DNA from: Candidatus Woesearchaeota archaeon
Lineage (GTDB): Archaea > Nanobdellota > Nanobdellia > Woesearchaeales > GCA-2686295
Reading direction: 5' to 3'
Length of the DNA: 64,000 nucleotides
NCBI GenBank assembly: GCA_937912225.1
Contig: CALDOJ010000035.1
Location: forward strand, 10,571 to 74,570
Position 1 is the first letter of the stretch; each line of letters starts with the position of its first letter. The notes under the pieces are model-generated. The model worked only from the letters and a program-made list of their open reading frames with translations, was not told the origin of the DNA and made no database searches. The position numbers and the translations under genes were made by a program. Positions 13,959-54,205 of the stretch are shown piece by piece.

Positions 13959-13978
13959 TTAGTATATTAATATACTAA
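13959..13978. repeat. perfect 20-nt palindrome TTAGTATATTAATATACTAA
   Basis: Starts 1 nt after the stop of 12708..13958 and about 85 nt upstream of the major pilin gene. The two half-sites are exact reverse complements. Confidence 0.8.
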
Positions 13979-14061
13979 AACCCGCAAAAATCGAAAGCTT
14001 TAAATAAGATAATGCTTGAAATCAAAGCAAGTAGTAATACTTATAAAAAATATTGAGGTGA

Positions 14062-36432: not shown

Positions 36433-36471
36433 GTATTTGTTCGAATATTTATCAGGAAAGGGTGTGGTTTT

Positions 36472-37680: not shown

Positions 37681-40600
37681 TTAAAAAGAAATTAGCTGCT
37701 ATGTTCACACTTATACTATTTATTATGTCAATTATCCCACAAGGTGTAATTGCAGCACCAGAAGCATACGCTTTTGAAGATTATTCTAAATTTAATAATG
37801 TAGAACTTACAAGTGGAGATATGAGTTTATCTGTTCCTTTATTAACAATTCCTGGAAGAGGCGGAATGACTTATTCTATTGCAATGAATTACCACGCAGG
37901 TATTCAACTAGATCAACAAGCAGATGTAGTTGGTCTTGGATGGTCATTGAACTTGCCTTTAATAACCAGATCTGTTAATGGTGTGCCTGATGATTGGCAT
38001 TTTACAGGAGATGATGATTCTTATATGTTATACAAAAATTTTCCGGCCGTGTTTCCAGCAAGTATGTTTCAAAATCAAATTAAACAACATGAAGCTGCAA
38101 AAGCACAAGCACGGAAAAATATGGCTAAACAAGCTCTTATTGGAGTTGCTTTAGCTGCCGCAACAGGTGGAATTGGAGCAGCCGCAGGAATTGGTGGGAT
38201 GTCTGCAATAGGTGCTGCAAAACAAGCAGCTGTATCAACTGTTACTCAATCAGGATATGGTGCTTTAACTATGAGTAGTACTTTTAAATCTCAAGCAAAA
38301 GATATGAAATCTGAACAAAAAAGAATTAAAGATTTAATAACCGCTACATCTACAACTACTACTGCCCAACCTTTAAGTGGAAAAGTTTATGATCCTGCTG
38401 CAGGCGGTGATGGAAATAATCATGTTTTTGCTTTAGATGAAGTTAATCCCGATTCTTATTTTGTTAATTCACCTTCTTATATGGGTTCTTGGTTATTACG
38501 TGATTCTGCAGGAACAGGTCAATTAGAATATTTTTTACCAACTCATTTTTCAGCTTCTCCAAATCAAATTTGTGTGCAAACAGGTGTTGGAACTTGCGAG
38601 GTTGACAGTGTTCAAGATAGAACTGCAAGTTATGCGACTGGTTCAAGTTTACCTATAACTGCTACTGAAAATAATGTTATTCCTTTAATGAAAGAAACTT
38701 TTGGAGGAGGATTAAAAGGTTTTGTAATTGTTGATCCTTCTGGAACAAGATATTTATTTACAACTGCTATTGAAGAAGCTGTTGCTTATGATGAACCTGC
38801 TGGTTTTTCATTTTTACCAGGAGATATTCCTACTGCTGCAAACGATGAGGAACGTGCTTATTCAAGTTTTTCATGGATTGATTTTTATCCTGGAGGAGTT
38901 AGTAGTACAGATATTGCTTTGAAAAATGATGTTCAAGGAAGACTTGGAAGTGGAACCTTTTTATTACAAGATCATACTTCTGTTTGGGGTTTAACAAAAG
39001 TTATGGATGCAAACACTGCTTTAATAGGTGGTCAAGGCGAAGTGATGGGTAATTCTGTTTCATTCATATATGTGAATGTTACTTTAAATGATGGAGTTTT
39101 TACAACTTCAAATTCTATGAATACAAAATCTGGTTCAGAGTATTTTAGTGTTGATGAAGATTTTTCAATAACTCCAACAGGTCATAAAACTGTTGCTCGA
39201 GCTTTTAAAACTATGAAACTAGTTGAAGAAATTCATACAGATACTCATTATACTAAATTCGTTTATGATTATAATAGGTATGATGGTAAAGAAGCATATT
39301 CTTCAGGAACACTTGATAATATGCCAAAGCTTGCTGAAATAAAATTATACGCAAAACAAGGTAATGATGATAATGCTGTTTTGTTAGAACGATACGAGTT
39401 TACTTATGATTACAGTTTAGCTAGAGGAGCACCTGATAATATTCTACCAATTGAAAATGAGAATAGTGGAAGACTTACACTTAAAGAAATAAGACATTGT
39501 TCAGGAAGTGGTGATACTTGTTTACCACCTATTAAATTTGAATATGCTAATAATGAAGAACCTATTATTGAAGATATTTGTTCAGGTTTATTAGTTGAAA
39601 ATGTTCCTCGGAATATGTGTGGCGATAGTTCTGGTTTAAAATGTGAAGAATCAGTTGCTGAAAGATATTGTAATAATGTTTATGGTTTAAACTATGTTTC
39701 TAATTCAAAAGTTTGTGATGGTGGAAATCATGGTCATGGAGATTGGGCTCATTATCCAAGCGATACTACACCTCCATGTGGTGGAAGTGGTTCTGATGAA
39801 TGGGTTAATTCATTAACTTGTGATTCATCTTCTTTAATTAGTTGTGTAATTGCAGGTGCAACTGTTAATTCAAATTTAGATAATACTAAAAACCCATTAT
39901 ATATTAAGAATGCTCGTGATCGATGGGGTTATTTCTTTTTATCAACTGATGATGAAAATGTTCATAATATTCAAGGCAACTCAAATCCTACTGTTGATGC
40001 GTGGAGTTTGACAAAAGTTATTTGGCCAACTGGTGGAGTTACTGAATGGGAATATGAAGAAGATAAATATAATTATGTTAATGATATTAATTTAGGAAGT
40101 AGTAAATATGGTGGTGGATTAAGAGTTAAGAAAGTAATTAACTGTGATGGGATGGGTCAATGTTATACTCAAAATTATGCTTATAGAAATCAAGATGCAG
40201 ATAAATATTCTGTAAATGCTTTTGAACTAGGAATTGAAAAATCAACTCACAGTTCAGGTGTTACTCTTGGAGAACCAGCTGTGCCTCTTTATTCAATGAA
40301 TTATCAACAGTTATCTGAATTAATTAATCCCTATCCTTCAATTGTTCAAAGTAATAATTTTGGTGTATCTTATGGAAAAGTTGAGACTTATTCTGATAAT
40401 AAAATCGCTTCTAATGGAGTAACCATATCTGAATTTACAACTGCTGTTGATTATCCTGGACAAGGTAAATATACTCCTAATCAAATGTATCCATTTTATA
40501 CTATTTCATATGGTGCAACAGGGTCAAATAATGCTGAACCTATAACTGAAGATTTTGTTGGATTTGACCGAATTAAAGTTGTTCCTAAAAAAGGAAGTGA

Positions 40601-42974
40601 TAATTATAACCAATTAAGAATTAATGAAGATAAAAAATATTTTGTTGTTTCAAGTACACCTGGATATTTATTCTTTTTAAGAATGAATGCTGGTGAAGAT
40701 GGAGGTGGTAATTGTGACTGTGGAATTAAAGCAACAGTACAACATCCTCAAAATGCACCTCCATTTATTGGTCCTGCTGAAGAAACAGGCGCTTGTCCTG
40801 GTGAATACGATACAGGTCTTTACTGTGCTGAAATAGAATTTGAAGATAGAGGTTGGCCTAGTTGGGGAACACAATGTGGATGTAAAGATCCTGGTAATAT
40901 ATTTTTATTTTGTCCTTCAAATGATAATGGTTTAATTGTAGATTCAGGAGGAACTACTGCAGACAATTATAATCCTTGGACTCATAGCGGTAGTTCTTGG
41001 TTTGATTCAGTGGAAAATAAATTTGAATATAGTGCTAGAGGAGGCAGAGATGATCCTTGGCAAACAAGTCCAATGAAATGGGCACATGATAGTACTTGTT
41101 ACTTTATTTTTGGAGGAGACTCAATGTGGGATTCTAATGAAAAAGTAGTATGGGACGCAAATGCTCCTGGTTGTATTGATAATAATAACGATGGAAATTG
41201 TGATTTACCATTAGTTGAAAATCTTGGAAAAGAAGTTAAGAGTTATATGCTTGGAATAAATAAAGAAACAAATACTTATTCAGCAGATAATCTTAATGAT
41301 CCTCTTGCTTGGTCTAAAACTCATTTTAATGCAGAGCCATTCACAGATTTGGAATCTGAAGGGGTTTTTATTGGAAAAACTAATATTTATAGAAGTGAAT
41401 CAATGCAAGAAGGGATTCATACAATAATTGATTATTCAAATTTTGATCCTTGGACTGGAGCTCCTCAAAGAGTTGAAACTACTGATAGCGAAGGTCGTAC
41501 AATTGTAACAGAAACATTATTTGCTTATGATACTGCTGCTGGTGCAGGTGAAGAAATGTATGGTGAATTTGGTAAAGAAGGATTACATATGCTTTCAGTA
41601 CCAAAAACTGTAACTATAAGTGAAGAAGGTTCTGATGATGCTTATTTAACTAAGACAATTTCTTTTTGGAAAAATAATTGGGATGTAGGATATATTGATG
41701 CAGGTGATAGTGCAAATAATGCTTGGTTGCCTTATGAAACAAAAGTTATTCATATTGAAGATGGATTTGAAAGAATTTCTGCAGGTAAATCTTTAGCTTA
41801 TGATAAATATTTTAATTTAATTGTTTCTGAAGATGCTAAAGAGGATGCTAAAACTTATTATTTCTTCGGAGATAATGATGAAAGTACTCAATGTAGAGAT
41901 GTTGATGGTGGATTTAATCGTCTTTATTTTGAGAATCCTACTTTTAAAAATGCAGTTCCTACTTGTGTAGAAAATGAATTAGGTCATACTGTTCGAACTA
42001 AATATGATTCAGATTACAGAGTAACTGATGTTTACGATATTAATGATTTAAGAACTCGTTATGCATATGATGGTCTTGGTAGATTAAGAAATATTTGGCA
42101 GCCTGGTAATACTGGTACTTCTGATTCAAATGCTGATATTCATTATGATTATGAATTTTATCAAGGTGCAGTTGTTGATAACCCTGACTTTGATGATGGC
42201 TTAGAAGATTGGACTGAATGGACTGCTTATGGCAATACTTTAAGCCCTTGTGCAGTTGCATCTGTTGTTGATGACCAAACAGCTGTTAGATTAAAAGTTA
42301 AGCCTGCAGGAACTTGTTTAAGAGAACAAGAAGTTGATTTAGATGTTTCAGAAACTTATACTATTAGTGCAGATGTTAAAATAATGGATGCACCGGCTAA
42401 TTGGATTCAAACTTATATGCGATGCAGATATGACCATAACAATGATGGTGTTTATAATACTGCTAATGGTGATCATTATCGTGATTATGGAGTCGCTGCA
42501 GATCTTGATTTAATAAATCGATGGCAAACAATTTCAAGGACTTTTAGTCCTTCTGAATATGCTAATAATGACTCTATACTTGATTGTAGATTAGCAGTCA
42601 GAATTCATTCAGATGAAGGTAGTAATAATGCTGGTGATGTTTTCTTTGATCATGTTGCAATTGGAAAACCTAACAAAATCACGACTACAACTAAATTAAA
42701 TAGTGCTGGTGCAAAAGCTATTGGTGTTTCATTCTTTGACGGACTTGGAAGAAATATACAAAGTCAAGCAAAAGAAAGTAATACTAATTGGATTGTTAGT
42801 TATACTGATTATTATGATTATATGCCTGCTGTTGATAAAGCATGGAGACCATTAAGAAAAGAAACTAGTGGTGAATATGATTTTACACAACCTACAGGAA
42901 TTTATTCAAAGACTATTTTTGAACATAGTCCTTTAGCAAGAGTTAAGGAGGTTTACCCTGCTCTGGTAATTTAA
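37677..42974 (+). CDS. TcB/SpvB-N-like plus YD-repeat (Rhs-family) shell protein, part 1
   Basis: 1765 aa. Sec-type leader MIKKKLAAMFTLILFIMSIIPQGVIAAPEAYA. SpvB/TcB-N-like LSVPLLTIPGRGGMTYSIAMNYHAG..VVGLGWSLNLPLITRSVNGVPD. TcdB-mid-like VWGLTKVMD, AWSLTKVIWPTGG and LPPIKFEY. YD repeats YAYDGLGRLRNIW and FFDGLGRNI. A CBM-like insert lies at about 42171..42668. Confidence 0.75.
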   Translation: MIKKKLAAMFTLILFIMSIIPQGVIAAPEAYAFEDYSKFNNVELTSGDMSLSVPLLTIPGRGGMTYSIAMNYHAGIQLDQQADVVGLGWSLNLPLITRSVNGVPDDWHFTGDDDSYMLYKNFPAVFPASMFQNQIKQHEAAKAQARKNMAKQALIGVALAAATGGIGAAAGIGGMSAIGAAKQAAVSTVTQSGYGALTMSSTFKSQAKDMKSEQKRIKDLITATSTTTTAQPLSGKVYDPAAGGDGNNHVFALDEVNPDSYFVNSPSYMGSWLLRDSAGTGQLEYFLPTHFSASPNQICVQTGVGTCEVDSVQDRTASYATGSSLPITATENNVIPLMKETFGGGLKGFVIVDPSGTRYLFTTAIEEAVAYDEPAGFSFLPGDIPTAANDEERAYSSFSWIDFYPGGVSSTDIALKNDVQGRLGSGTFLLQDHTSVWGLTKVMDANTALIGGQGEVMGNSVSFIYVNVTLNDGVFTTSNSMNTKSGSEYFSVDEDFSITPTGHKTVARAFKTMKLVEEIHTDTHYTKFVYDYNRYDGKEAYSSGTLDNMPKLAEIKLYAKQGNDDNAVLLERYEFTYDYSLARGAPDNILPIENENSGRLTLKEIRHCSGSGDTCLPPIKFEYANNEEPIIEDICSGLLVENVPRNMCGDSSGLKCEESVAERYCNNVYGLNYVSNSKVCDGGNHGHGDWAHYPSDTTPPCGGSGSDEWVNSLTCDSSSLISCVIAGATVNSNLDNTKNPLYIKNARDRWGYFFLSTDDENVHNIQGNSNPTVDAWSLTKVIWPTGGVTEWEYEEDKYNYVNDINLGSSKYGGGLRVKKVINCDGMGQCYTQNYAYRNQDADKYSVNAFELGIEKSTHSSGVTLGEPAVPLYSMNYQQLSELINPYPSIVQSNNFGVSYGKVETYSDNKIASNGVTISEFTTAVDYPGQGKYTPNQMYPFYTISYGATGSNNAEPITEDFVGFDRIKVVPKKGSDNYNQLRINEDKKYFVVSSTPGYLFFLRMNAGEDGGGNCDCGIKATVQHPQNAPPFIGPAEETGACPGEYDTGLYCAEIEFEDRGWPSWGTQCGCKDPGNIFLFCPSNDNGLIVDSGGTTADNYNPWTHSGSSWFDSVENKFEYSARGGRDDPWQTSPMKWAHDSTCYFIFGGDSMWDSNEKVVWDANAPGCIDNNNDGNCDLPLVENLGKEVKSYMLGINKETNTYSADNLNDPLAWSKTHFNAEPFTDLESEGVFIGKTNIYRSESMQEGIHTIIDYSNFDPWTGAPQRVETTDSEGRTIVTETLFAYDTAAGAGEEMYGEFGKEGLHMLSVPKTVTISEEGSDDAYLTKTISFWKNNWDVGYIDAGDSANNAWLPYETKVIHIEDGFERISAGKSLAYDKYFNLIVSEDAKEDAKTYYFFGDNDESTQCRDVDGGFNRLYFENPTFKNAVPTCVENELGHTVRTKYDSDYRVTDVYDINDLRTRYAYDGLGRLRNIWQPGNTGTSDSNADIHYDYEFYQGAVVDNPDFDDGLEDWTEWTAYGNTLSPCAVASVVDDQTAVRLKVKPAGTCLREQEVDLDVSETYTISADVKIMDAPANWIQTYMRCRYDHNNDGVYNTANGDHYRDYGVAADLDLINRWQTISRTFSPSEYANNDSILDCRLAVRIHSDEGSNNAGDVFFDHVAIGKPNKITTTTKLNSAGAKAIGVSFFDGLGRNIQSQAKESNTNWIVSYTDYYDYMPAVDKAWRPLRKETSGEYDFTQPTGIYSKTIFEHSPLARVKEVYPALVI

Positions 42975-42975: not shown

Positions 42976-45900
42976 ATGAAAACAAAATTAATATTTGGAT
43001 TATTGATTATTTTTTTAATTAGTATGCTATCAGTTTCATCTTTTGAAGTTTGTAACAATTTAGATGATGACAATGATGGTTTAGTTGATGAAGGTCTTTC
43101 TAATTGTGATTGTAGAGAAGGCTGTGATGGGGCTGTTAGTTGCGCTTCATATAGTTATGATGCTTGTCCTACAAGTGTTGGTTGTTCCAGAGATAATGTT
43201 TGTGATGGTTCAGTATCTGCTTCTGAATTTTGTTTTGGTTTACAACAAATTGCTCAAGTTCGTTATGGTGCGGATGATTTTGGACAACGTGTTTGTTTAG
43301 ATTTTGGCGGTGATTTGTGCCAATGGTTTGAGATGGATAATTTGTGTGTTCCTGCTAATGGTGTTTATGGTTCTCAAACTTGTTCTGAGATTATAGGTCC
43401 TAGTGGTCGTAGTGGTTGTAGTTGGGCAACAGATTCTTATATAACTAATTATTATGGTTCTGGAGATTCTAGTTTTGGTTGGAGTGATTGTACTTATACT
43501 CAAATATGTGCTAATTCTCCATCTTGTTCAAGTCAAGGTTTTGATACTTGCAATGATCTTCATGGTTGTTCTTTATCAACAAGTAAATCTTCATTTGAAG
43601 TTTGTGGTGATAATATTGATAATGATTGTAATCAACAAGTTGATGAAACATGTGATATTCCAAGTATAAAGTCTACTTATAATCCTAGTAATGCTAATAA
43701 TGAAGATTATTCTTATGTGCTTGTAACTGATGAAGAAGGCACACAAACAAGATCAAAAACTGATAAATCAGGAAATCTTAAAGAAATAAAAGAAGCATAT
43801 AATTATGCGTCTGACAGAACAACTGCAGAATATAATTATGATGTTTTAGGACGATTAAAAACAATCACTTTACAAAATCCTGAAGGCGGAGATCATGTAA
43901 CAACTAAAGAATATAATTCGCTTGGTCAGTTAACTGATGAATATCATCCTGATACAGGTCATGTAAGTTTCACTTATGATTTGAATGGTAATTTACTCAC
44001 TTCTCAAGTTGAAGGCGCTCCTGAAAAAGATGTAGTTATAGACTATGATGTTTTAAACAGAGTTAATAATATTACTTGGCCTAATTATGAAGGCGGAACT
44101 ACTGCTGTTCAATATTATTATGATGATGACGATGAATGTACTTATACTTATTATTCAAAAGGAAAAGTTTGTAAGATTGTTGACTTGTCTGGAACTATAG
44201 AATTTATTTACAATTATAAAGGTCAAGTTGAGCGAGAAGTTAAAGGAATTCTTCCAATAACTAACATGGTTGCTAATCCTGGTTTTGATGCAAGTACTAT
44301 CTTTTGGTCTAATTATGGTTTGGGTTCAAAGTTAATTAGAGAAAATGGAGTTGCTTATGTTACTGTTAATAGTAGTGGAGCTGATAGTTATGCTGGAATG
44401 CATTATGCAGATAATACTAAAGGTATAATTAAAGTTGAACCTGATACTCAATATACTCTTTCTGCTTTAGTTAAAACAGGTAATATATATGGTGGTAATG
44501 GACATGTTACTTTAGATACTCATTGTCATAATGAAGAGCATACTAATGGTAATTTTCATCGTGTAATTATTTCGTCAGGTTCAGATAGAGTTTTACCTGC
44601 TAATTCAGAAACTTTTGTAAGATTATCTGAAACTATAACAACAAATGATACTGCAGATCATTGTCATGTAAAAATATATTTCCAAAACGATGGTGAATAC
44701 GGTGATTTCTGGGTTGATGAAGTTCAATTTGAACAAGCACCTGCTTTTAGTGGTGAATATAAACAAGATTTCTTCATAAGTGATTATGCTTATGATTCTT
44801 CAGGCAGATTAGTATCAATGGTTTATCCTAGCGGTAAACGATTAGATTACAATTACAATTCATTTTCACAATTAGAATCTATGAGTTTAGATGCTAATAA
44901 TGACGGTACTCCTGATAAAACAATTGTTCAAGGTTATGTTTATAATCCAACTGGTAGCCTTGCTAGTTTTCAAACAGGTGATGGAATTACTACAACTTAT
45001 TCTTATACAATAAGAGAATGGTTAAATAGCTTAGATATCGGTGATTTATACGAACGATCTTATGATTATGATAAGACTGGTAATATGATGACTATGTATG
45101 ATGACCTTTCACAAAATAATGATGTTGCAAGTTATGGTTATGATAAATTAAGTCGAATTAAAACAGTTAATTCAGATATTCTTGGGAGACAATCTTATGA
45201 ATATGATAAACTTGGTAATAGATTGCTTTTAAATACGCCTGAAAAAAGAGTTAGTTATGATTATTCTTATAATCCTGGTGTGAATCAAAACCCTGATATT
45301 TTAGAAGATAGTGCATCTATAAGATTAACTTCAATGTCTACTACAAGAAAATATACTGATGTGAATGTTGGCGGTGATATAGTTACAAGAGAAGTTGGTG
45401 GTAAAAGTATTGTTAGTAATAGTATTACTGGTAATGCTGTGAATACAGTTACTTCTTCAACATCTAGTTCTGAATTAGTATATGGTGTTACTGGTAGTTT
45501 AGAAAGTGATGGAACTTATACTTATGAATATTATCCAAATAATCGATTAAAAATTGTTAGAGAAAACTCCGGAACTATTGTTGAACAATACGTGTATGAT
45601 TATTTAGGTAATAGAATTATGAAAAAAGACGCTGATGGCGAAATTAAAAAATTATATTTATATGATTTAGGAAGTACTTTAATTGAAGAAATTGTTCCTA
45701 TTACTGCTTCTTGTGATGATGGTATTCAAAGTCCAGGAGAAACAGGTGTTGATTGTGGCGGTCTTTGTCCTGCTTGTCCAACTTGTAATGATGGCATACA
45801 AAATCAAGACGAAATTTATATTGATTGTGGCGGCTCTTGTGATGCTTGTGGCCCTGAAATCTGTGATAATGGTGTTGATGATGATTATGACAATAATGCT

Positions 45901-46632
45901 GACTGTGCAGACAATGATTGTTCAAATGGCGCTTTAGGAGTTCCTTGTTGTTCTGTTCAAGCTGATTGCCCAGCAGGATATGTTAATTCTTATGATACTT
46001 GTATGAATGGCCTTGAAGCTTGTTCAAGTAGTGTTTGTTCTTATGCTGATGATAGTCCTGTAGATGATAAGAATTGTGATGAAGCGATTTGTACTGCTAC
46101 TGGTTGGGATAATTCTATTTGTCCAACTTGTAGCGATGGTGTTCAAAATCAAGATGAAACTGGTGTTGACTGTGGTGGCGTTTGTGCTGCTGTTTGTCCA
46201 ATTTGTTCTGGAGAGCCAATAGATCCTTGTAGTGCATTTGATGCTGATGATGAGACTTGTATTATAGATGGTGGGCCTTCTTGTCATTGGGTTGGTGATA
46301 ATAATTGGGATGGTGCTTGTGTTTCTAATTCTCCATTAACTCCTTGTGATGATTATGATGATGAAGCTTTTTGTACTTCTCATGGTTGTGATTGGGGTGT
46401 AGAAATGCAACCTAAAACATTTAGTAATCCTCAAATTAAAATATCTGAAGGTACTTTTGCTGTTTGTGGAACTGAGAAGAGTATGGAGATGTTTTGTATA
46501 AGTGAAGGATTTGCTGGCGGCCAATTTACAAAGGCTTTTGGTGGCGGAAAATGTGCTAGTTTTGATGGCAAGGATTGGAAAGTTGGTGCTGATACTTATA
46601 GACAAATTGAGTGCGCTACTAATGCAAAATAA
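42976..46632 (+). CDS. YD-repeat (Rhs/TcC-like) shell protein, part 2, lacking the Rhs core and carrying a Cys-rich DCGG-repeat tail
   Basis: 1218 aa. Leader MKTKLIFGLLIIFLISMLSVSS. MopE-like CNNLDDDNDGLVDEG motifs. YD repeats YNYDVLGRLKTI, FTYDLNGNLLTS, YAYDSSGRLVSM, YDYDKTGNMMTM, YEYDKLGNRLLL and YVYDYLGNRIMK. After KLYLYDLGSTLIEEI it switches to C.DG(I/V)QN.DE.G(V/I)DCGG.C repeats instead of YYHxDHLGS. Confidence 0.75.
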   Translation: MKTKLIFGLLIIFLISMLSVSSFEVCNNLDDDNDGLVDEGLSNCDCREGCDGAVSCASYSYDACPTSVGCSRDNVCDGSVSASEFCFGLQQIAQVRYGADDFGQRVCLDFGGDLCQWFEMDNLCVPANGVYGSQTCSEIIGPSGRSGCSWATDSYITNYYGSGDSSFGWSDCTYTQICANSPSCSSQGFDTCNDLHGCSLSTSKSSFEVCGDNIDNDCNQQVDETCDIPSIKSTYNPSNANNEDYSYVLVTDEEGTQTRSKTDKSGNLKEIKEAYNYASDRTTAEYNYDVLGRLKTITLQNPEGGDHVTTKEYNSLGQLTDEYHPDTGHVSFTYDLNGNLLTSQVEGAPEKDVVIDYDVLNRVNNITWPNYEGGTTAVQYYYDDDDECTYTYYSKGKVCKIVDLSGTIEFIYNYKGQVEREVKGILPITNMVANPGFDASTIFWSNYGLGSKLIRENGVAYVTVNSSGADSYAGMHYADNTKGIIKVEPDTQYTLSALVKTGNIYGGNGHVTLDTHCHNEEHTNGNFHRVIISSGSDRVLPANSETFVRLSETITTNDTADHCHVKIYFQNDGEYGDFWVDEVQFEQAPAFSGEYKQDFFISDYAYDSSGRLVSMVYPSGKRLDYNYNSFSQLESMSLDANNDGTPDKTIVQGYVYNPTGSLASFQTGDGITTTYSYTIREWLNSLDIGDLYERSYDYDKTGNMMTMYDDLSQNNDVASYGYDKLSRIKTVNSDILGRQSYEYDKLGNRLLLNTPEKRVSYDYSYNPGVNQNPDILEDSASIRLTSMSTTRKYTDVNVGGDIVTREVGGKSIVSNSITGNAVNTVTSSTSSSELVYGVTGSLESDGTYTYEYYPNNRLKIVRENSGTIVEQYVYDYLGNRIMKKDADGEIKKLYLYDLGSTLIEEIVPITASCDDGIQSPGETGVDCGGLCPACPTCNDGIQNQDEIYIDCGGSCDACGPEICDNGVDDDYDNNADCADNDCSNGALGVPCCSVQADCPAGYVNSYDTCMNGLEACSSSVCSYADDSPVDDKNCDEAICTATGWDNSICPTCSDGVQNQDETGVDCGGVCAAVCPICSGEPIDPCSAFDADDETCIIDGGPSCHWVGDNNWDGACVSNSPLTPCDDYDDEAFCTSHGCDWGVEMQPKTFSNPQIKISEGTFAVCGTEKSMEMFCISEGFAGGQFTKAFGGGKCASFDGKDWKVGADTYRQIECATNAK

Positions 46633-46717: not shown

Positions 46718-46744
46718 GTTACTGATTGGTTACTGATTAGTAAC
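46718..46744 (+). promoter_or_regulatory. candidate operator: direct repeat GTTACTGATT x2 overlapping palindrome GTTACTGATTAGTAAC
   Basis: GTTACTGATTGGTTACTGATTAGTAAC lies between the TATA-like box and ATG 46748, where the transcription start is expected. Confidence 0.5.
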
Positions 46745-46747: not shown

Positions 46748-46957
46748 ATGGCTGAAAAATCAAATAAAAATAAAGGAAATCGTGTTAATCTATCATTTAA
46801 CGCAAAACAGATTGAACTAATTGATTCTCTAATAGGTGAAATAGGTGATAATCGCGCAGATGTGGTTAAAACAATATTCTTCAGCTGGTTATCAGAAAAA
46901 GGAATAACTGCGTCAATTCTAAAGAAAAAATTTGAGGATTTACAAAGTGAAAAGTAG
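46748..46957 (+). CDS. ribbon-helix-helix (CopG/Arc-like) DNA-binding protein
   Basis: 69 aa. NRVNLSFNAKQIELIDSLIGEIGDNRADVVKTIFFSWLSEKGI gives a beta-strand, helix, helix layout. Its 3' end overlaps the first cassette. Confidence 0.65.
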   Translation: MAEKSNKNKGNRVNLSFNAKQIELIDSLIGEIGDNRADVVKTIFFSWLSEKGITASILKKKFEDLQSEK

Positions 46958-48086
46958 ATTTATATTAGGATTGTTAGTGATGATTCTTTTAATCAGTTCT
47001 ATTTCTGCTTACGAACTTGAGTTTTATCATAGTGACCATCTTGGGTCTCCTGTTATTGTGACTGATGAAAGTCAAGTTGTGAAGTGGTCTTCTGATTATG
47101 ATGTTTTTGGTGAGACTGTTAATGAAGAAGGCGATGGCGATTTGAAGTATAATCAAAAGGAAAAAGATGATACTGGTCTTCTTTATTATGGTGCTCGTTA
47201 TTATAATGCTGATACGGGTCGTTTTATCACTGCTGATACTTTTAAGGGCAATTTAGTTGATTTACAAAGCCAAAACTTGTACGTTTATGTTCAGAATAAT
47301 CCGATGAAGTATATTGATCCGACAGGAAATCAAAAAGAACTTTCAAATCCTTTTGTAGAAAAAGATGTTGGTCATACAATTGTTGTAAAAGCAATGGATT
47401 TTAGTGATTACCAAGCAAATATTCCTGGTTTTGATCTTGATGATTTTAGTGCTTTTAGTAAAGCTTATGCTTCTTTTAGTGCAGTTATGAATGGTAACTC
47501 TGAGTTAGTTGGAATGTTACAAGATTCTGTTTATAAATCTCAAGTAAGTGGTTTTGAAGGCATTGAAGTGTTTGGTGTTTCGGATAATGCAGAAGATTAT
47601 TTATCTTTTCCAGCAACAGATAGTAAAACAACTTGGATGAATAAACCTTTTGCATCTATACCTGGTATGATTTCTGAATTAATAGAGGTTATTGACAATA
47701 CAGACATTTCAAGTAAAGAAATACTTAATGTAGTTATTGTTTTACATGGTGCTCCTGAAGGTGTTATGATTGATAGTAAAATGGGTTCTATGTATTCTGA
47801 AGATTATTATAAAGAATTATTACGTTTAAAAAGACATCTTCCTAAAGGCAGTAATTTATTCATAGATTCTTGTTACGGAGGAGGTATGTGTGATTATGGT
47901 GAGTCTTTATCTAAAAAATTGAAATCAAATGTATTTATTCCTGCTATTAATAATGTTGTTGTTAGACCTTTTACTGTTGATCAAAATACTTTGGGCGGTA
48001 CTATTCCGTTGACATTAACTACTCAAAGTTATGGGAAACCTGATTTAAATGCTGAAAATTACAAGACTCATGTTTTTGCACGATAA
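46947..48086 (+). CDS. Rhs-core cassette A: Sec-type leader + Rhs-associated core + His/Cys (DUF4347/caspase-like?) C-terminal domain
   Basis: The GTG 46947 start gives MKSRFILGLLVMILLISSISA|YELEFYHSDHLGSP..YDVFGE..YNQKEKDDTGLLYYGARYYNADTGRFITADT..NNPMKYIDPTGNQ, and the core ends near 47333. The tip contains VIVLHGAPEG and LFIDSCYGGG. Confidence 0.75.
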   Translation: MKSRFILGLLVMILLISSISAYELEFYHSDHLGSPVIVTDESQVVKWSSDYDVFGETVNEEGDGDLKYNQKEKDDTGLLYYGARYYNADTGRFITADTFKGNLVDLQSQNLYVYVQNNPMKYIDPTGNQKELSNPFVEKDVGHTIVVKAMDFSDYQANIPGFDLDDFSAFSKAYASFSAVMNGNSELVGMLQDSVYKSQVSGFEGIEVFGVSDNAEDYLSFPATDSKTTWMNKPFASIPGMISELIEVIDNTDISSKEILNVVIVLHGAPEGVMIDSKMGSMYSEDYYKELLRLKRHLPKGSNLFIDSCYGGGMCDYGESLSKKLKSNVFIPAINNVVVRPFTVDQNTLGGTIPLTLTTQSYGKPDLNAENYKTHVFAR

Positions 48087-48087
48087 A

Positions 48088-49104
48088 ATGAAAAAACTAT
48101 TGTTGTTCGGATTGTGTATATTGTTTCTACTTAGTTTTAGCTCTGCTTATGAACTAGAATTCTATCATAGTGATCATCTTGGTTCTCCTGTTGTTGTAAC
48201 AACTGAAAGTGCTGAGGTTGTTTGGTCTTCTGATTATGATATCTTTGGTGAGGCTGTTAACGAGCAAGGCGTTGGTGATTTATTGTATAATCAGAAAGAA
48301 AAAGATGATACTGGTTTGCATTATTATGGTGCTAGATATTACAATGCAGAACTTGGTCGTTTTATCACTGCTGACACCGTGGATGGTGAGATAACTGACT
48401 TACAATCTTTGAACAGATATATTTATGTGAAAAATAATCCTATAAAATATATTGATCCTGACGGACATAAATTTAGAGCAAAATTTGGTGGTCGTCATTA
48501 TGCTAATTTTATGAATGAAGGATTGGGAGGAATAGATGCTTTTTCTTTTAATGAAGAAACTAAATTTATAGAACTTAATGATGTTGATTTGAGTTTGGAA
48601 TCTGATTCTGTTAAAGAATTATTTGGTGTTTACAAAACTGCAATTGAATCTAAAAAAGTAGTTGATTTGGTTATTGGACATGATGGTTTTTTTGGTAAAT
48701 CTAAAGGTGTGTTTGGCGGACTATTTGGTAAGTTGCACATTTCAATCCCTCCTAGAATAGATGAAGCTGCTTTGGGAAAAGAAGGTTCATTCATTGAATT
48801 TAATCCTGCAAATGTTTTGGCTCATGAAACAGGTCATTTTGTTCATTATTTAGATGTTGGAAAAAAAGGATTGACTGAGCAAGTTGGTGTCGCCGTAGAA
48901 AATCTTGCAAGAATGAATATGGGTTCGTCAGAAAGAGTATTTTATTCTTCTAGTGAATTAGTTGATGTTGATGGAGAAGGTAATTTGTTTTCCTCTTTTA
49001 GTTTATTCACTCCTGAAGAATTTGATGAAGGAGTTTCAACTTCTAGTGCTGCTTTATTAGTAAATATTGAAGGAGAATATATTTTTTCGGCAGGTATAAA
49101 ATGA
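48088..49104 (+). CDS. Rhs-core cassette B: leader + Rhs core + HExxH metallopeptidase-like tip
   Basis: MKKLLLFGLCILFLLSFSSA|YELEFYHSDHLGSP...ARYYNAELGRFITADT...NNPIKYIDPDGH, and the core ends near 48468. The tip has VLAHETGHFVHY (HExxH) and AVENLARMNMG. Confidence 0.75.
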   Translation: MKKLLLFGLCILFLLSFSSAYELEFYHSDHLGSPVVVTTESAEVVWSSDYDIFGEAVNEQGVGDLLYNQKEKDDTGLHYYGARYYNAELGRFITADTVDGEITDLQSLNRYIYVKNNPIKYIDPDGHKFRAKFGGRHYANFMNEGLGGIDAFSFNEETKFIELNDVDLSLESDSVKELFGVYKTAIESKKVVDLVIGHDGFFGKSKGVFGGLFGKLHISIPPRIDEAALGKEGSFIEFNPANVLAHETGHFVHYLDVGKKGLTEQVGVAVENLARMNMGSSERVFYSSSELVDVDGEGNLFSSFSLFTPEEFDEGVSTSSAALLVNIEGEYIFSAGIK

Positions 49105-50153
49105 AACAGCCAATATTATTCGGATTGTGTATGCTTTTCCTACTTAGTTTTAGCTCTGCTTATGAACTAGAATTCTATCATAGTGATCATCTTGGTTCTC
49201 CTGTTGTTGTTACAACTGAAAGTGCTGATATTATTTGGTCTTCTGATTATGATGTGTTTGGTGAAGCTGTTAACGAGCAGGGAGATGGAGATTTGAAGTA
49301 TAATCAGAAGGAGAAGGATGATACTGGTTTGTTGTATTATGGTGCTCGTTATTACAATGCTGATACTGGTCGTTTCATTACGGCTGATACTGTTAAAGGT
49401 GAAATGACTGATTCTCAATCTCAGAACTTGTATGTGTATGTTAAGAATAATCCTATGAAATATGTTGATCCGACTGGTAATAAATTTAGACCAAAGAATT
49501 ATGATTCTGGTTTGGATGCGGTTAATTTTATGAATGAATTATCTGGCGATGACTTCTTTTTTTATAATGAAGAATCAAGTTTAATTGAAATGACTGATTT
49601 AATATTTTCAGACAAATTCACCAACAAGAATGAACGTGTGTTGTATGATTTATTTAAAGAATTAGTTGAGACTGATACAAATTTTAATTATGTAAAAGAA
49701 ACATTTCCTTATTCTTCACATCGGAATGGAAATATTAGAGTAGGGTTATCTCCTGGTTCTTCAGAACTTGGAAGATTCTCTAGGAAAATTGATTTTTCTC
49801 GTGCTAGCATATTTGTTCATGAATTAAGTCATGCGTATACTGATTTATTTCCGAATGAATTTGATTACTCTACAGAAACGTTTGCTGTTGGAATGGAGAA
49901 TGTTGCTAGAAAGATTCTTGGTGAGAAGAAAAGAATTTATTATTCTATACTTCCTGAAATAGTTGATAAAAAAACAACTCCTGGTGTGGAAAGATTCTTT
50001 AAACCTGAAACCTTTGATAGAATAAAAAATAACGAGTATCATAAAGCTGTAGATCATTACAATAAACATGGGGGTTATGTTATTATTAAAATACAGGTAC
50101 TGAATGATCCTGCAAAAACTACTGCTGATTTAGTTAAAAGAAAAAATGATTAA
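49101..50153 (+). CDS. Rhs-core cassette C: leader + Rhs core + HExxH metallopeptidase-like tip (paralog of B's tip)
   Basis: MKQPILFGLCMLFLLSFSSA|YELEFYHSDHLGSP...NNPMKYVDPTGN, and the core ends near 49481. The tip has FVHELSHAYTD (HExxH) and AVGMENVARKILG, and starts KFRPK..NFMNE like B. Confidence 0.75.
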   Translation: MKQPILFGLCMLFLLSFSSAYELEFYHSDHLGSPVVVTTESADIIWSSDYDVFGEAVNEQGDGDLKYNQKEKDDTGLLYYGARYYNADTGRFITADTVKGEMTDSQSQNLYVYVKNNPMKYVDPTGNKFRPKNYDSGLDAVNFMNELSGDDFFFYNEESSLIEMTDLIFSDKFTNKNERVLYDLFKELVETDTNFNYVKETFPYSSHRNGNIRVGLSPGSSELGRFSRKIDFSRASIFVHELSHAYTDLFPNEFDYSTETFAVGMENVARKILGEKKRIYYSILPEIVDKKTTPGVERFFKPETFDRIKNNEYHKAVDHYNKHGGYVIIKIQVLNDPAKTTADLVKRKND

Positions 50154-51186
50154 AATGATGATATTTGGATTGTGTATGATTCTTCTAATCAGTTTTAGCT
50201 CTGCTTATGAGTTGGAGTTTTATCATTCTGATCATCTTGGTTCTCCTGTGCTGGTTACTGATGAGTCTGGTGCTGTTCAGTGGTCTTCTGATTATGATGT
50301 TTTTGGTGAAGCTGTTAATGAAGAAGGTGATGGTGATTTAGGTTATAATCAAAAAGAGAAAGATGATACTGGTTTGTTGTATTATGGAGCTCGTTATTAC
50401 AACGCAGAGCTTGGACGGTTTATTACTGCTGATACAGTCAAAGGAAGTGCTGGTAGTTTGCAGAGTCAGAACTTATATGTTTATGTTCAGAACAATCCGA
50501 TGAAGTACATTGACCCTACAGGAAATCAGCAACACCCCTCAACTTTATCAGATGCGGAAGGTGTTTGTAGAGATAAATCTTATTATTTTAAATTTTTATT
50601 AGAAAATGTTTTTCATATACCAAATAAAAATACTCTAGGTCATTTTAATTCTGAAGGAGTTTCTAAAGGAAGAGAACATGATTTATTTAAACAGGGTGAT
50701 GATTTGGTTACATATTCTGAGTGGACTTCTTCACCAACTGTAAATCTACTTACTAAATTGTTTATGTCAAAAGATGCTAATACTTGGACTGAAGATTTTG
50801 AAAATGAGCCAACGAATGAACAACTAGAAAGATTCAATCAGTTTGAAAGTGAAATGAAAGTTTTAGCTTCTGAATTATTTGCAAAACAAACATTTGTAGA
50901 AATGAATCCTGAAAATCAAAAAACTGTTTTGAATAAGATAATGAAAAGTATAGATGCCTATATACCTGTTGGAAGCGAATCATATAATTATGAACGAGCA
51001 AATAACGAAGAAAGTTTTTTTGGTTCTATTGCGTCCGGTATTATTCAAGGAGGTGATGCGCCTCCAAATCATGGTTGGAATACGATAATGTTAAGTGATG
51101 GATCCAGAGTGATAATGGATTTGACTAATTATGATGTTGTATTGGAAGAAGTTCCTAGAGAAAGATCATTTTATTATTGGAAATAA
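50146..51186 (+). CDS. Rhs-core cassette D: leader + Rhs core + transglutaminase/papain-like tip
   Basis: MIKMMIFGLCMILLISFSSA|YELEFYHSDHLGSP...NNPMKYIDPTGNQ, and the core ends near 50526. The tip has EGVCRDKSYYF (Cys), NHGWNTIML (His) and VIMDLTN (Asp), in the order of a transglutaminase-core triad. Confidence 0.7.
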   Translation: MIKMMIFGLCMILLISFSSAYELEFYHSDHLGSPVLVTDESGAVQWSSDYDVFGEAVNEEGDGDLGYNQKEKDDTGLLYYGARYYNAELGRFITADTVKGSAGSLQSQNLYVYVQNNPMKYIDPTGNQQHPSTLSDAEGVCRDKSYYFKFLLENVFHIPNKNTLGHFNSEGVSKGREHDLFKQGDDLVTYSEWTSSPTVNLLTKLFMSKDANTWTEDFENEPTNEQLERFNQFESEMKVLASELFAKQTFVEMNPENQKTVLNKIMKSIDAYIPVGSESYNYERANNEESFFGSIASGIIQGGDAPPNHGWNTIMLSDGSRVIMDLTNYDVVLEEVPRERSFYYWK

Positions 51187-51225
51187 TGGTTGTATTTTAT
51201 ATTTAAGAAAGTGTTTTAAGTAAAA

Positions 51226-52365
51226 ATGAAAAAAATAATTATTTTCGGATTGTATATGTTGTTTATATTTGGTTTTTCAAAACTTTTTTATACTGTTAAA
51301 TTTAGATTTTTATCTATGCGGCGACTTTGTTTAGTGTTTACTTGTTTTTTGTTGTTAGTTAGTTCTGTTTTCGCTTATGATTTGGAATTTTATCATTCTG
51401 ATCATCTTGGTTCTCCTGTTGTTGTGACTAGTGAATCTGGCGAGACTGTTTGGTCAAGTGATTATGATGTTTTTGGTGCTTCTGTTAACGAGCAAGGCGT
51501 TGGTGATTTATTGTATAATCAGAAAGAAAAAGATGATACTGGTTTATTGTATTATGGTGCTCGTTATTACAATGCTGAGCTTGGAAGGTTCATCACAGCT
51601 GATACTGTTAAAGGAACAATGACTGATTTGCAATCTCAGAATTTGTATGTCTATGTACAAAATAATCCGATGAAGTACGTTGACCCTACAGGAAACCAAA
51701 AAGTTTTAGGTATACTTTCTTCAACTATAGTTCACGAATATCTTGATGATAAAATACGAAGTACAAGTATTGTTAGAGCGAAATATAATGGTGGTGATGC
51801 TGAGGAAATTTATCAACAATTATTAACTGATGAGGATTTTGTACGAACAGAAATGGGTCGTTTAAGATCTCATTACGAGTCTTTTTTTGGTGGAAAAATG
51901 TATCAATGGAATTCTGAGAAACAATTATCTGGAGGTACTTTTAGAGAAGAAATAAATATTGAAGATATTACTTTTAAACTTGTTTCAAATATTGATGAAT
52001 TTGTTTCTCTTCTTAATGGCGGAATTGGAGATTATGATGAAGTAATAATTCATGGTCATGGCTCGCCTTATTCTATTGAATTTGGTGGCGAAAGATTAAC
52101 AACAAAAATACTTTCTAAATTAATAAAAAAAGGTCAAATAGAAAATAATTTTGAGGAATTAAGTAGTTGTACTTTAATTTCTTGTTCTGTATTTGGTGAA
52201 ACAAAAAAAAATTTTTTTAATAAACGTTCTGAGAATATTGGAACGATGTTAACTAATCTCTTAGGAGTGCCTACCTTAGGAAGTAAAATAAATATTGAGA
52301 CTAGCAGTAATATTTTAGAAACAGTCATGATTGGAGATTGGGCTATTTACGAACCAAAAGAATAA
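51226..52365 (+). CDS. Rhs-core cassette E: double leader + Rhs core + His/Cys (DUF4347/caspase-like?) tip, related to A's tip
   Basis: MKKIIIFGLYMLFIFGFSKLFYTVKFRFLS then MRRLCLVFTCFLLLVSSVFA|YDLEFYHSDHLGSP...NNPMKYVDPTGNQ, and the core ends near 51696. The tip has VIIHGHGSPYS and CTLISCSVFG. An internal start is possible at 51316. Confidence 0.7.
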   Translation: MKKIIIFGLYMLFIFGFSKLFYTVKFRFLSMRRLCLVFTCFLLLVSSVFAYDLEFYHSDHLGSPVVVTSESGETVWSSDYDVFGASVNEQGVGDLLYNQKEKDDTGLLYYGARYYNAELGRFITADTVKGTMTDLQSQNLYVYVQNNPMKYVDPTGNQKVLGILSSTIVHEYLDDKIRSTSIVRAKYNGGDAEEIYQQLLTDEDFVRTEMGRLRSHYESFFGGKMYQWNSEKQLSGGTFREEINIEDITFKLVSNIDEFVSLLNGGIGDYDEVIIHGHGSPYSIEFGGERLTTKILSKLIKKGQIENNFEELSSCTLISCSVFGETKKNFFNKRSENIGTMLTNLLGVPTLGSKINIETSSNILETVMIGDWAIYEPKE

Positions 52366-52366
52366 G

Positions 52367-53572
52367 ATGAATAAAATAGTGATTTTCGGATTGTGTATGT
52401 TGTTTATAGTTAGTTTTTCAAAACGTTTTTATACTATTAAATTTAGATTTTTATCTATGCGGCGACTTTATTTAGTGTTTACTTGTTTTTTGTTTTTAGT
52501 TAGTTTTGTTTCTGCTTATGAATTAGAGTTTTATCATTCTGATCATCTTGGTTCTCCTGTAGTTGTTACTAACGAAGATGCTGAGGTTCAGTGGTCTTCT
52601 GATTATGATGTTTTTGGTGAATCTGTTAATGAGGATGGTGTTGGAGATTTAGGTTATAATCAAAAAGAAAAGGATGATACTGGTCTGTTGTATTATGGTG
52701 CTCGTTATTATAATGCTGAGACAGGACGTTTTATAACTGCTGATACTGTGAAAGGAATTGCTGGTAGTTTACAGTCTCAGAATTTGTATGTTTATGTTCA
52801 GAATAATCCTATGAGATTTATTGATCCTACAGGAAATCAGAGAGTTAATTCGGAAGTTATAAATGAAGCTTATGATTGTACTACATTTGTAAGGGGTGCC
52901 TATGGGCAGTATGGCAGTTCTAAATCTGGAGGTATTGAAGCGGATGATGTTATTAGAAATTTAGCGAAAACTGGTGACTTCAAAGCAGTTGCATACGTTA
53001 TTTTATCCGGTTCAGAACCTGGAAGAACAGTTTCGCTTGAAGCATTTGCAATTGAATCTGAAGCTGATAATTACGAAACTTATGCTTATTTCGATACTAA
53101 TACTAATAGGGGTGTTATTGAGATTTGGCAGAAACAATCTATGCCTCATGATGTTGGAAGAATGTTCGAATTATTCGGTGGAAATCTTGAAATAATTGCT
53201 TATCCTGATAAAGAATCTAGAGCTGAAGCTATGAAAACTGTTTCTGCAGGTGCACCAGTTTTAAATACTGATTTTTTTGCTTCTCAAAGAATGCATGCTT
53301 TAATGAAGGGCGAAGGAGATCAAACTATAGAAGCTCATGTTGGTTATGGTGTTAGCATGGAGTCTGATGATATTATATCTCGTTTTAATGATCCTTTAAT
53401 TTTTGCTGTTCCAACAACCCAAAGAGGTGAGTCTTTAGCTTCAAATGCGCATTCTTGGGCTCAAAGAAAAGCCAATAGTCCCTCAGTAACTTCAGTCTGG
53501 GGAGGATTTGGAAAATATATTTATCATTATAATGGTGGAAGAACGTCTGTTGCAGAATATATGACTAATTAA
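52367..53572 (+). CDS. Rhs-core cassette F: double leader + Rhs core + papain-like (NlpC/P60 or CHAP-like?) tip
   Basis: MNKIVIFGLCMLFIVSFSKRFYTIKFRFLS then MRRLYLVFTCFLFLVSFVSA|YELEFYHSDHLGSP...NNPMRFIDPTGNQ, and the core ends near 52837. The tip has AYDCTTFVRGAYG (Cys) and IEAHVGYG (His). The track ORF starts at 52331. Confidence 0.7.
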   Translation: MNKIVIFGLCMLFIVSFSKRFYTIKFRFLSMRRLYLVFTCFLFLVSFVSAYELEFYHSDHLGSPVVVTNEDAEVQWSSDYDVFGESVNEDGVGDLGYNQKEKDDTGLLYYGARYYNAETGRFITADTVKGIAGSLQSQNLYVYVQNNPMRFIDPTGNQRVNSEVINEAYDCTTFVRGAYGQYGSSKSGGIEADDVIRNLAKTGDFKAVAYVILSGSEPGRTVSLEAFAIESEADNYETYAYFDTNTNRGVIEIWQKQSMPHDVGRMFELFGGNLEIIAYPDKESRAEAMKTVSAGAPVLNTDFFASQRMHALMKGEGDQTIEAHVGYGVSMESDDIISRFNDPLIFAVPTTQRGESLASNAHSWAQRKANSPSVTSVWGGFGKYIYHYNGGRTSVAEYMTN

Positions 53573-53576: not shown

Positions 53577-54194
53577 TTATTTTCTTCTTGTTGCAAGAAT
53601 TTGAAATTCGTCTTTAAAATTAGATAGTGGTTCTTCAACTACTTCTCCTGCCCAAGGTGAAGCATGAATTATATTTCCGTTTCCAGAATATATTGTTAAA
53701 TGATAACTCCATTGTGGTTTTCCTGCGATTGTATCTATTGGAATGTTTTCTTCTTCCATTCCTGGAACTGCCATATTAAAATCAACTAAGAAATATACTG
53801 CGTCACCTTTTTTTAAAGCATCAGTTGTTGTAGAATCTATATTTGGGCTCGGTAAGTCGACTAGATCTCCTAATGCACCTGATTCTATGTTATCAAATGC
53901 TGTAAATGTGTATTTTGAAGTATTGTACCATTTTTCATTGTGTGCTGTTGAAAATGCTCTATAAGGTAGTCCTAAACAATCTAATCCTGGAAACTTATTT
54001 GTTAATCGTCCTTCCCAAATATATGGTGTTCCTATTTTACTTCTCGCATAATTGATTATTTGATCTTGCTTGCTTTGTTTTTGAACGATGGTGGTTGGCT
54101 CGGATTTTGGGTTGTTTGATTCTGGAATTGGTGCTGCTAAAACTATTCCTGGCAGGATGAGTGTTGTAAGTAGTAATTCTAGAGTTTTTTTCAT
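53577..54194 (-). CDS. secreted NlpC/P60-family peptidase
   Basis: Signal peptide MKKTLELLLTTLILPGIVLAAP. ARSKIGTPYIWEGR...FPGLDCLGLPYRAF (catalytic Cys) and HLTIYSGNGNIIHASP (His) match the NlpC/P60 pattern. Confidence 0.7.
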   Translation of the reverse strand: MKKTLELLLTTLILPGIVLAAPIPESNNPKSEPTTIVQKQSKQDQIINYARSKIGTPYIWEGRLTNKFPGLDCLGLPYRAFSTAHNEKWYNTSKYTFTAFDNIESGALGDLVDLPSPNIDSTTTDALKKGDAVYFLVDFNMAVPGMEEENIPIDTIAGKPQWSYHLTIYSGNGNIIHASPWAGEVVEEPLSNFKDEFQILATRRK

Positions 54195-54205
54195 TTTTCA
54201 TTAAT

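Follow-up and report, generated by a model that had tools for sequence, protein, structure and literature searches.

We analysed a 64,000-nucleotide (nt) stretch of contig CALDOJ010000035.1 from a Candidatus Woesearchaeota archaeon (64 kb, hereafter the window) and focused on six tandem genes at 46947-53572. Each encodes a signal peptide, a 106-amino-acid (aa) Rhs core and a C-terminal tip of 212-252 aa, and we refer to these genes as cassettes A to F. Just upstream lies the gene for a YD-repeat shell protein that has no core of its own, and the cassettes appear to be its missing C-terminal part. The original prediction for this region, which described a self-standing polymorphic toxin array, had not seen the shell gene. 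The split into a core-less shell and leader-core-tip genes is real and is conserved in metagenome-assembled genomes (MAGs) of Woesearchaeota and Nanoarchaeota.

We interpret the cassettes as expressed, Sec-exported plug-effectors of a Tc/Rhs-type system that is aimed at another organism, perhaps completing the shell in trans, and we give this reading a probability of roughly 0.45. The broader view, that they are expressed and exported Rhs-core/effector fusions that functionally belong to the upstream Tc/Rhs-like genes, is in our judgement very probable.

Architecture of the cassette array

All six open reading frames (ORFs) run on the + strand, in agreement with the original prediction of six tandem, co-directional leader-core-tip genes. 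Cassette A occupies 46947..48086 (leader 46947-47009, core 47010-47327, tip 47328-48086, 252 aa), cassette B 48088..49104 (leader 48088-48147, core 48148-48465, tip 48466-49104, 212 aa) and cassette C 49101..50153 (leader 49101-49160, core 49161-49478, tip 49479-50153, 224 aa). Cassette D follows at 50146..51186 (leader 50146-50205, core 50206-50523, tip 50524-51186, 220 aa), cassette E at 51226..52365 (double leader 51226-51375, core 51376-51693, tip 51694-52365, 223 aa) and cassette F at 52367..53572 (double leader 52367-52516, core 52517-52834, tip 52835-53572, 245 aa). Start codons were chosen as those that yield a normal leader. For cassette A this is GTG 46947; the ORF listing places the start at TTG 46932. 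The encoded proteins are 338-401 aa long and contain no YD repeats.

The junctions between cassettes are tightly coupled (TAAAATG, ATGA), with intergenic distances from A to F of 1, -4, -8, 39 and 1 nt, and at this spacing there is no room for an immunity gene between them. The ORFs that lie within the cassettes do not exceed 83 aa and are shadow frames of the conserved core or of low-complexity sequence. The original prediction had made both points, and the coordinates and the ORF listing bear them out. A core-motif search across all frames of the window found no seventh core.

Every cassette has a start codon of its own and a typical n-h-c leader that ends in a small residue, any residue and Ala. 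The predicted mature N-terminus is Y(E/D)LEFYHSDHLGS, and the signal peptide abuts the core directly. The leaders had been described as ending in SSA, or in VFA for E; this is right for B, C and D (SSA) and for E (VFA), whereas A ends in ISA and F in VSA, and there are two leader types. Type 1 (MKKLLLFGLC...) is common to B, C, D and the upstream shell gene, at ~70% DNA identity. Type 2 (..Y.VK.RF...) is found in A, in the second half of the E and F double leaders and as the sole leader of the cassette in a related locus, L009. In E and F the two types stand one after the other: a hydrophobic segment of B/C/D type comes first, and the A/L009-type signal peptide after it has its own Met (at 51316 in E and 52457 in F). 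The true start codon of these two genes is uncertain. The double leaders look like the relic of a past rearrangement.

The guanine-plus-cytosine (GC) content of the cassettes is 31-34%, similar to the remainder of the window, and a recent horizontal acquisition of the array was rejected on this ground. Joining of the genes by read-through or by an alternative genetic code was likewise rejected, as table 11 leaves the 1765- and 1218-aa ORFs uninterrupted and TAA, TGA and TAG all occur as stops. No RNA genes or tRNA were found in the array region.

The cassettes carry a conserved Rhs core

All six cores match the Rhs_assc_core model TIGR03696 at 70-76 bits, against a cut-off of 32.5, and Pfam RHS (PF03527) with E values of 1e-8 to 6e-12. 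A profile built from them matches the extreme C-termini (last ~100 residues) of Rhs and TcC proteins in the PDB, namely 8h8a (7e-13), YenC2 (4e-12), TccC3 (~2e-11), RhsA (7q97) and Tse5. The core alignment has ~80 invariant columns, running from AY(E/D)LEFYHSDHLGSP through DPxG, and similarity is gone within two residues past DPxG. Judged from these matches, the conserved block is a true Rhs core and DPxG is the boundary between core and tip, as the original prediction had proposed. In the solved proteins this core shuts the beta-cocoon.

In solved Rhs and TcC structures, the C-terminal plug of ~95 aa is an aspartyl protease domain and sits deep inside the barrel, and Rhs cleavage takes place after the second of two DPxGL-type motifs and needs the Asp of that motif (PMC8636562). 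The cassettes keep both autoprotease Asp positions without exception, in ITADT and in DP(T/D)G; these align with SADP.. and DPDG in YenC2 and with DPTG in 8h8a. The residue that follows the Gly of DPxG is Asn or His in the cassettes, not Leu.

The cores had been described as near-identical. Their identity between cassettes is 77-89% for protein and 73-86% for DNA, and pairs of cores have synonymous divergences (dS) of 0.6-1.45 and ratios of nonsynonymous to synonymous divergence (dN/dS) of 0.09-0.20. The cores are conserved and are old paralogues, with strong purifying selection acting on their amino-acid sequence. Such dN/dS values at high dS make them unlike a stretch that is kept merely as a recombination handle.

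Local traces of exchange are present in the cores. Those of B and E, which are 79% identical overall, share an identical patch of 64 nt (48254-48317 = 51482-51545; permutation p<0.0005), which points to local gene conversion, and those of B and C share one of 50 nt (permutation p=0.002). A 1105-nt contig from another sample (L007, 2.5x coverage) reads from tip A into leader B and core B, and then switches to core E inside the 64-nt patch, so that tip B, C, D and leader E are skipped. The contig may come from a genuine variant with a B-to-E deletion, or it may be an assembly chimera.

A core-less shell and a TcB-like protein are encoded upstream

The cassettes form the tail of a single-strand string of genes in the order protein X, TcB-like protein, shell, a small ribbon-helix-helix (RHH)-like ORF and cassettes A to F. 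The shell gene (42976..46632, + strand) encodes 1218 aa with a signal peptide, a Cys-rich N-terminal region, YD repeats and a Cys-rich tail. The protein matches RHS_repeat at 50.4 bits and, in the PDB, the Rhs shells of 8h8a, Tse5 and 7q97. It has no match to RHS or Rhs_assc_core and no core motif. A core hidden in another frame after the shell gene was considered as well, and none was found. The last hairpin of the shell (...KKLYLYDLGSTLIEEIVP, with the end ...EQYVYDYLGNRIMKKDADGEIKKLYLYDLGSTLIEEIVP) is followed by a Cys-rich tail of ~300 aa that holds three copies of a CxDGxQNQDExxxDCGGxC repeat (45702-46191). MopE-like Cys/Asp motifs are also present in the shell.

The gene for the TcB-like protein (37677..42974, + strand, 1765 aa) stops 1 nt ahead of the shell gene. 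Its product has a signal peptide, an SpvB N-terminal domain (27.8 bits, cut-off 22), an inserted CBM_4_9 domain (30.6 bits, cut-off 25.9) and a C-terminal DUF6443 (45.5 bits). There was no PDB sequence match to this protein, and TcdB_midN was not detected in it. The shell has a CBM_4_9-like insert of its own among the YD repeats, with a weaker score of 19.3 bits, and the inserts in the two proteins suggest a scaffold that recognises a glycan.

Protein X (36565..37680, + strand), whose gene runs 4 nt into the start of the TcB-like gene, consists of three Cys-flanked repeats of ~105 aa, a Ser/Thr linker and a C-terminal YD-type hairpin, TTDYIYAGGQLVAKVTEVTQ, directly before the stop. A lone terminal YD-type hairpin likewise ends the otherwise different proteins encoded ahead of the TcB-like gene in two related loci (VIDYVWMGGQLVARIKE and stop in L005, VTDYIWANGQLVAKVVEGNE and stop in L006). 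The terminal hairpin of X could be a strand that adds onto a YD sheet. A strain variant of X (P0030, 393 aa) has 22 extra N-terminal residues with a hydrophobic anchor.

The split is conserved in related loci

The host is a DPANN archaeon of the Woesearchaeota/Nanoarchaeota group. The window has 31% GC and encodes a thermosome, an archaeal-type pilus ATPase, FKBP26, FtsZ and Spt5-NGN, and the closest relatives of the cassettes are in MAGs of those groups. With the core profile, 80 metagenome loci were fetched. In this set, a leader that abuts the core occurs only in this clade; in the other 70-odd loci, at least 100 aa or a full shell precedes the core.

Within the clade, the shells of the window, L003 and L006 end in ...YVYDYLGNRI.K......Y(L/I)YDLGS(T/N)LIE(E/M)I(A/V)P and then continue into unrelated tails. 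In L003/L008, from a Nanoarchaeota MAG, the shell end ...TTIYIYDLGSNLIEMIAP is followed by an unrelated tail of ~85 aa; a leader-core-tip gene lies 5 nt past the shell, and two more are found further on. In L006, from Woesearchaeota bin.305, the shell ends in ...TTIYLYDLGSTLIEEIAP with a tail of ~130 aa, and the gene order is X-type, TcB-like, shell, two small genes and one leader-core-tip gene. L005 has a cassette with a D-type tip, followed by a gene for an X-type protein and by TcB-like genes. A TcB-like SpvB gene precedes the shell in both the window and L006, and is linked to the cassette in L005.

One more distant archaeal contig (L010, Ga0209541_10005107) encodes an unsplit protein of 2032 aa at 4859-11373, in which FG-GAP, TcdB_midN, RHS repeats, core and tip are joined in one chain. 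When the window shell was aligned by eye to this protein, its last hairpin fell one or two hairpins before YYHPDHLGS, which places the fission between neighbouring hairpins, approximately at the boundary of shell and plug. The unsplit protein is a useful outgroup for dating the split.

A search with leader plus core returned 13 mostly fragmentary proteins, and one with the C-terminal region of the shell returned a single weak match. In the literature we found no description of a core-less shell with leader-plug-tip genes, and an earlier mention is possible in an archaeal survey (Makarova et al. 2019). That survey aside, we also found no description of Rhs systems in Woesearchaeota or Nanoarchaeota.

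Two of the relatives had further features. On an archaeal contig with ribosomal protein genes (L088, 332-1356), a leader-plus-core ORF of 128 aa stops after DPRGSK and a B/C-type HExxH tip continues in another frame, representing a frameshifted cassette or a sequencing error. In L006 (9992-12827), the cassette is followed by a gene for a 571-aa ADP-ribosylglycohydrolase on the opposite strand; the tip of this cassette has a weak Ntox10 match only.

The tips fall into five families

The original prediction had described six different tips. Two of them, B and C, share 31% identity over 198 aa (E 1e-15) and are homologous, and there are consequently five tip families, not six. Motifs had been assigned tip by tip, and these are indeed present, whereas no tool verified an identity as peptidase. 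The statement that all tips are peptidases should be taken as a reasonable guess and not as a finding: none could be placed with Pfam, NCBIfam or the PDB, and a relative carries a nucleotidyltransferase tip.

Tip B has HETGH ... ENLAR and tip C has HELSH ... ENVAR, and HExxH and ENxAR are invariant among B, C and the homologue in L088. Tip D has the motifs GVCRD ... HGWN ... MDLT, with its Cys and His 168 residues apart. It is 42% identical to the tip of L005, which comes from a Nanoarchaeota MAG and follows the same kind of core, and the Cys, His-x-Trp and Asp-x-Thr are invariant between the two. When tip D was compared with a DUF553-like tip in hhalign, the His-Asp stretch alone was aligned, with a weak E value of 0.08.

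VIVLHG and FIDSC are 42 residues apart in tip A, and so are IIHGHG and LISC in tip E. As read from the sequence, both tips have a hydrophobic strand ahead of the His-Gly and another ahead of the Ser-Cys, a layout that we take to resemble clan CD peptidases. Homology between tips A and E was not detectable by pairwise comparison, MAFFT or hhalign (in the latter, the profile contained its target). Tip E has a weak match to DUF4347 (E=0.088). Tip F contains YDCTTFV ... AHVGY, i.e. a Cys...His pattern only. Its best PDB match was CwlO, which is weak (E 0.62), and it has no sequence similarity to the neighbouring NlpC/P60 protein. AlphaFold on the single sequence of tip F returned an unusable model, with a predicted local distance difference test score (pLDDT) of 36.6.

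In Pfam, the tips alone had no match at E<=10 except that of E to DUF4347, and the whole proteins matched no tip family at E<=0.1. NCBIfam matched no tip. PDB sequence searches with tip F, tip E and a B/C/L088 profile gave nothing significant, and neither did a tblastn comparison of 72,556 plasmids with tips F and D. When tip A was searched exhaustively with HMMER against 1.84 billion representative proteins, no trusted homologue was identified; the matches were internally repetitive proteins matched many times over and were judged spurious. A word-indexed search of a 5.8-billion-sequence collection with tip E returned only tip E itself. The tip families without detectable relatives may represent new enzyme or toxin folds.

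The tips of related cassettes include the nucleotidyltransferase in L003 (PF01909, 21.1 bits) and weak transglutaminase-like (DUF553) and Ntox10 matches. The nucleotidyltransferase shows that the cassette family is not restricted to extracellular peptidases.

Regulatory features and neighbouring genes

The RHH-like ORF (46748..46957, + strand, 69 aa) overlaps the start of cassette A by 11 nt. It has a ribbon-helix-helix-like pattern by inspection and is called as a gene on a JGI contig; its sole family match is weak (BrnA antitoxin, E 0.041). It is likely to be a transcription regulator of the array. Reading the sequence 4 nt upstream of it (46718..46744), we identified a direct repeat GTTACTGATT (46718-46727 and 46729-46738, period 11) with an overlapping palindrome GTTACTGATTAGTAAC (46729-46744), an element that is a candidate operator. 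In the related locus L004, a small gene of the MarR-type winged helix-turn-helix family is located directly upstream of the solitary cassette, in the same position as the RHH-like ORF.

The 39-nt gap between D and E is the only real intergenic gap of the array. Within it, a TATA-like TTTTATATTT at 51195-51204 lies 22-31 nt before the ATG of E and might serve a leaderless transcript as its archaeal TATA box. On the other side of the array, genes for a secreted NlpC/P60 protein (205 aa) and a TPR protein (227 aa) on the - strand (53577-54889) converge on the end of cassette F, 4 nt off.

Farther away, at 3000-14000, the window contains an archaeal type IV pilus-like cluster with a T2SSE ATPase (10344-11909), T2SSF (12708-13958) and several unannotated large ORFs, e.g. 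one of 915 aa at 5024-7771. This cluster may be a surface apparatus of the symbiont.

Discussion

We propose that the shell, the TcB-like protein and the cassettes would be exported separately, and that, through beta-strand addition, one of the six alternative plug-effectors would then dock into the unplugged shell. The effector would be cut free by the conserved Asp of DPxG and, once released, would act on another organism, such as a host or prey cell. A foreign target would explain the absence of immunity genes beside the cassettes. The idea of targets outside the producer was already part of the original prediction, and it has direct precedent. Tc loci have several tcC genes and no immunity genes (PMC7861908), and effectors aimed at other organisms are set apart from classical polymorphic toxins by absent immunity genes (PMC3482391). 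Woesearchaeota have been proposed to attack bacteria or bacterial walls (PMC9723730).

The locus can be compared to the Tc BC complexes with alternative TcC subunits of Photorhabdus and Yersinia entomophaga. Both have a TcB-type protein with an SpvB N-terminal domain, a YD-repeat cocoon made from more than one polypeptide, and a core/aspartyl protease right before a hypervariable effector. Both also have several alternative effector genes, sometimes in tandem, and lack immunity genes. Most Tc hypervariable regions have no recognisable domain, as is the case here (PMC7861908, PMC11067744). However, a TcC consists of a half-shell, core and hypervariable region of ~850-1050 aa in total, and each brings its own half-shell of ~680 aa, whereas here there is one constant shell gene and the cassettes, which at 338-401 aa are without YD repeats, keep only the 106-aa plug. 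Tc BC complexes assemble in the cytoplasm, whereas all parts of the present system have predicted Sec signal peptides. In addition, no TcA was found in the window, and the host is an archaeon.

Classical Rhs/WapA proteins and their orphan modules share with the cassettes the Rhs_assc_core, the DPxG motif and a variable C-terminal domain, as well as tandem core-plus-tip modules downstream of a YD-repeat gene and exchange between cores. They differ in that the main gene here is without a core, the modules have their own starts and signal peptides, and there are no immunity genes. Moreover, the cassette cores have diverged at synonymous sites, whereas classical cores are kept identical in DNA. 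Rhs polymorphic toxins carry a YD-repeat shell ahead of the core on one polypeptide, and the cassettes do not. The unsplit L010 protein is similar in its archaeal context (S11/S4/S13/DUF655), its order of pre-core hairpins, its core (47% identical) and its variable tip, but combines all domains in one protein of 2032 aa, the end of which is overlapped by a 139-aa ORF, a possible immunity gene. Teneurins, too, have an extracellular YD shell and a C-terminal toxin-like domain that is not enclosed, but they are single chains with the plug in cis and have no exchangeable effectors.

Docking in trans, in which the plug closes the shell and self-cleavage follows, is the tentative part of the proposal, and we would give it somewhat less than an even chance. 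The points in its favour are that the shell is always plug-less, that the plug is buried in known structures and that the cut is near a structural boundary. More doubtful is the full assembly, in which one constant unplugged shell with its TcB-like partner would be closed extracellularly by any of the six plug-effectors and X would be attached via its lone YD hairpin.

Several observations weigh against the reading of the cassettes as plug-effectors of the shell. The insertion of a plug into a preformed shell is without experimental or structural precedent; in known systems the cargo is enclosed as a single chain, or a cytoplasmic TcB-TcC pair, folds. The parts would have to meet outside the cell, and at the place expected for the plug the shell has its own Cys-rich tail of ~300 aa. 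The large ORFs of the 64-kb window that were scanned contained no TcA-type domain. In the window, the anchor ATG of X reads ACG (36445-37680), and this protein X may be without the anchor. Solitary cassettes are located far from any shell gene in L004, L009 and L088, and the lineages examined for the split number only three or four. AlphaFold on the isolated core (18 sequences) gave no confident model (pLDDT 42.2), a result that is in itself neutral on docking. ADP-ribosylglycohydrolases serve as immunity against ADP-ribosylating toxins in bacteria. The one beside the L006 cassette could be an immunity gene, and the rule of no immunity might then fail family-wide.

Alternatively, the cassettes may be autonomous secreted pro-enzymes, in which the core is a self-cleaving pro-domain or folding aid and the tips are released to the medium or surface without contact to the shell. 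The shell and TcB-like proteins would then be a separate surface structure, e.g. an adhesin. Each cassette is fully equipped for export and keeps both autoprotease Asp positions, the shell has its own C-terminal tail, and the solitary cassettes of L004, L009 and L088 stand beside unrelated genes. Teneurins are extracellular YD shells without enclosed cargo and with the C-terminal domain outside (PMC8636562). We regard autonomy as somewhat less likely than the plug-effector reading. Against it, the plug is buried in solved structures, and a free 106-aa plug would hardly fold or form the protease site alone. Autonomy also leaves unexplained the plug-less shells of the clade, which have the same end hairpin and plug-bearing genes downstream, and a nucleotidyltransferase tip, found in at least one relative, would be pointless outside a target cell. 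Far less probable is that the cassettes are silent orphan modules that form a reservoir for exchanging the tip of a main rhs gene by recombination and are not expressed as such. In the textbook arrangement, core-plus-tip arrays lie downstream of a main rhs gene (PMC3482391), and the 64-nt B/E and 50-nt B/C patches are traces of exchange. The joining of core B to core E within the 64-nt patch in L007 would speak for this reading as well. However, the main gene upstream is without a core to recombine with, and in every cassette an own start codon and signal peptide are fused to the core. Core DNA that is only 73-86% identical while the protein is under strong purifying selection is the opposite of a mere recombination handle, and the modules have no immunity genes. 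The L007 contig, with its 2.5x coverage and a crossing in a 64-nt repeat, may be an assembly chimera.

A further explanation for the absence of immunity genes, which fits either docking or autonomous delivery, is that all tips are peptidases directed at extracellular targets or foreign envelopes, making self-protection needless. HExxH with the downstream ENxAR in B, C and the L088 homologue, and the Cys, His-x-Trp and Asp-x-Thr of D and its L005 homologue in transglutaminase/papain order, agree with this explanation, as do the weak transglutaminase-like DUF553 match in a relative's tip, the clan CD-like layout of A and E and the DUF4347 match of tip E (E 0.088). The proposal of Woesearchaeota as attackers of bacterial walls (PMC9723730) and the secreted NlpC/P60 gene next to the array point in the same direction. 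On the other hand, searches of families, PDB chains and plasmid records gave no significant match for any tip, A and E could not be shown to be homologous, and tip F is unrelated to the adjacent NlpC/P60 protein. The Cys and His of D and F are ~170 residues apart, far beyond typical members, and relatives have tips that are not peptidases. We consider it improbable that all of the tips are peptidases.

In the current understanding, Rhs and Tc toxins are cocoons whose own C-terminal toxin becomes enclosed during folding. A separately exported plug-plus-toxin would be a test of loading or docking of cargo in trans, which is of practical relevance to the engineering of Tc/Rhs containers with custom payloads. 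If the proposed docking of plug-effectors is true, the Rhs plug would be a docking module, comparable to dockerin. If the cassettes are autonomous instead, the locus would still be the clearest case found of shell-less "mini-Rhs" proteins that are maintained by selection. How DPANN archaea attack or feed on their partners is largely obscure, and this locus offers testable secreted effectors together with a putative glycan-binding delivery scaffold. Should the docking reading prove true, a genome-reduced DPANN archaeon could use a single shell for many payloads directed at its host or prey and would not need to carry immunity genes.

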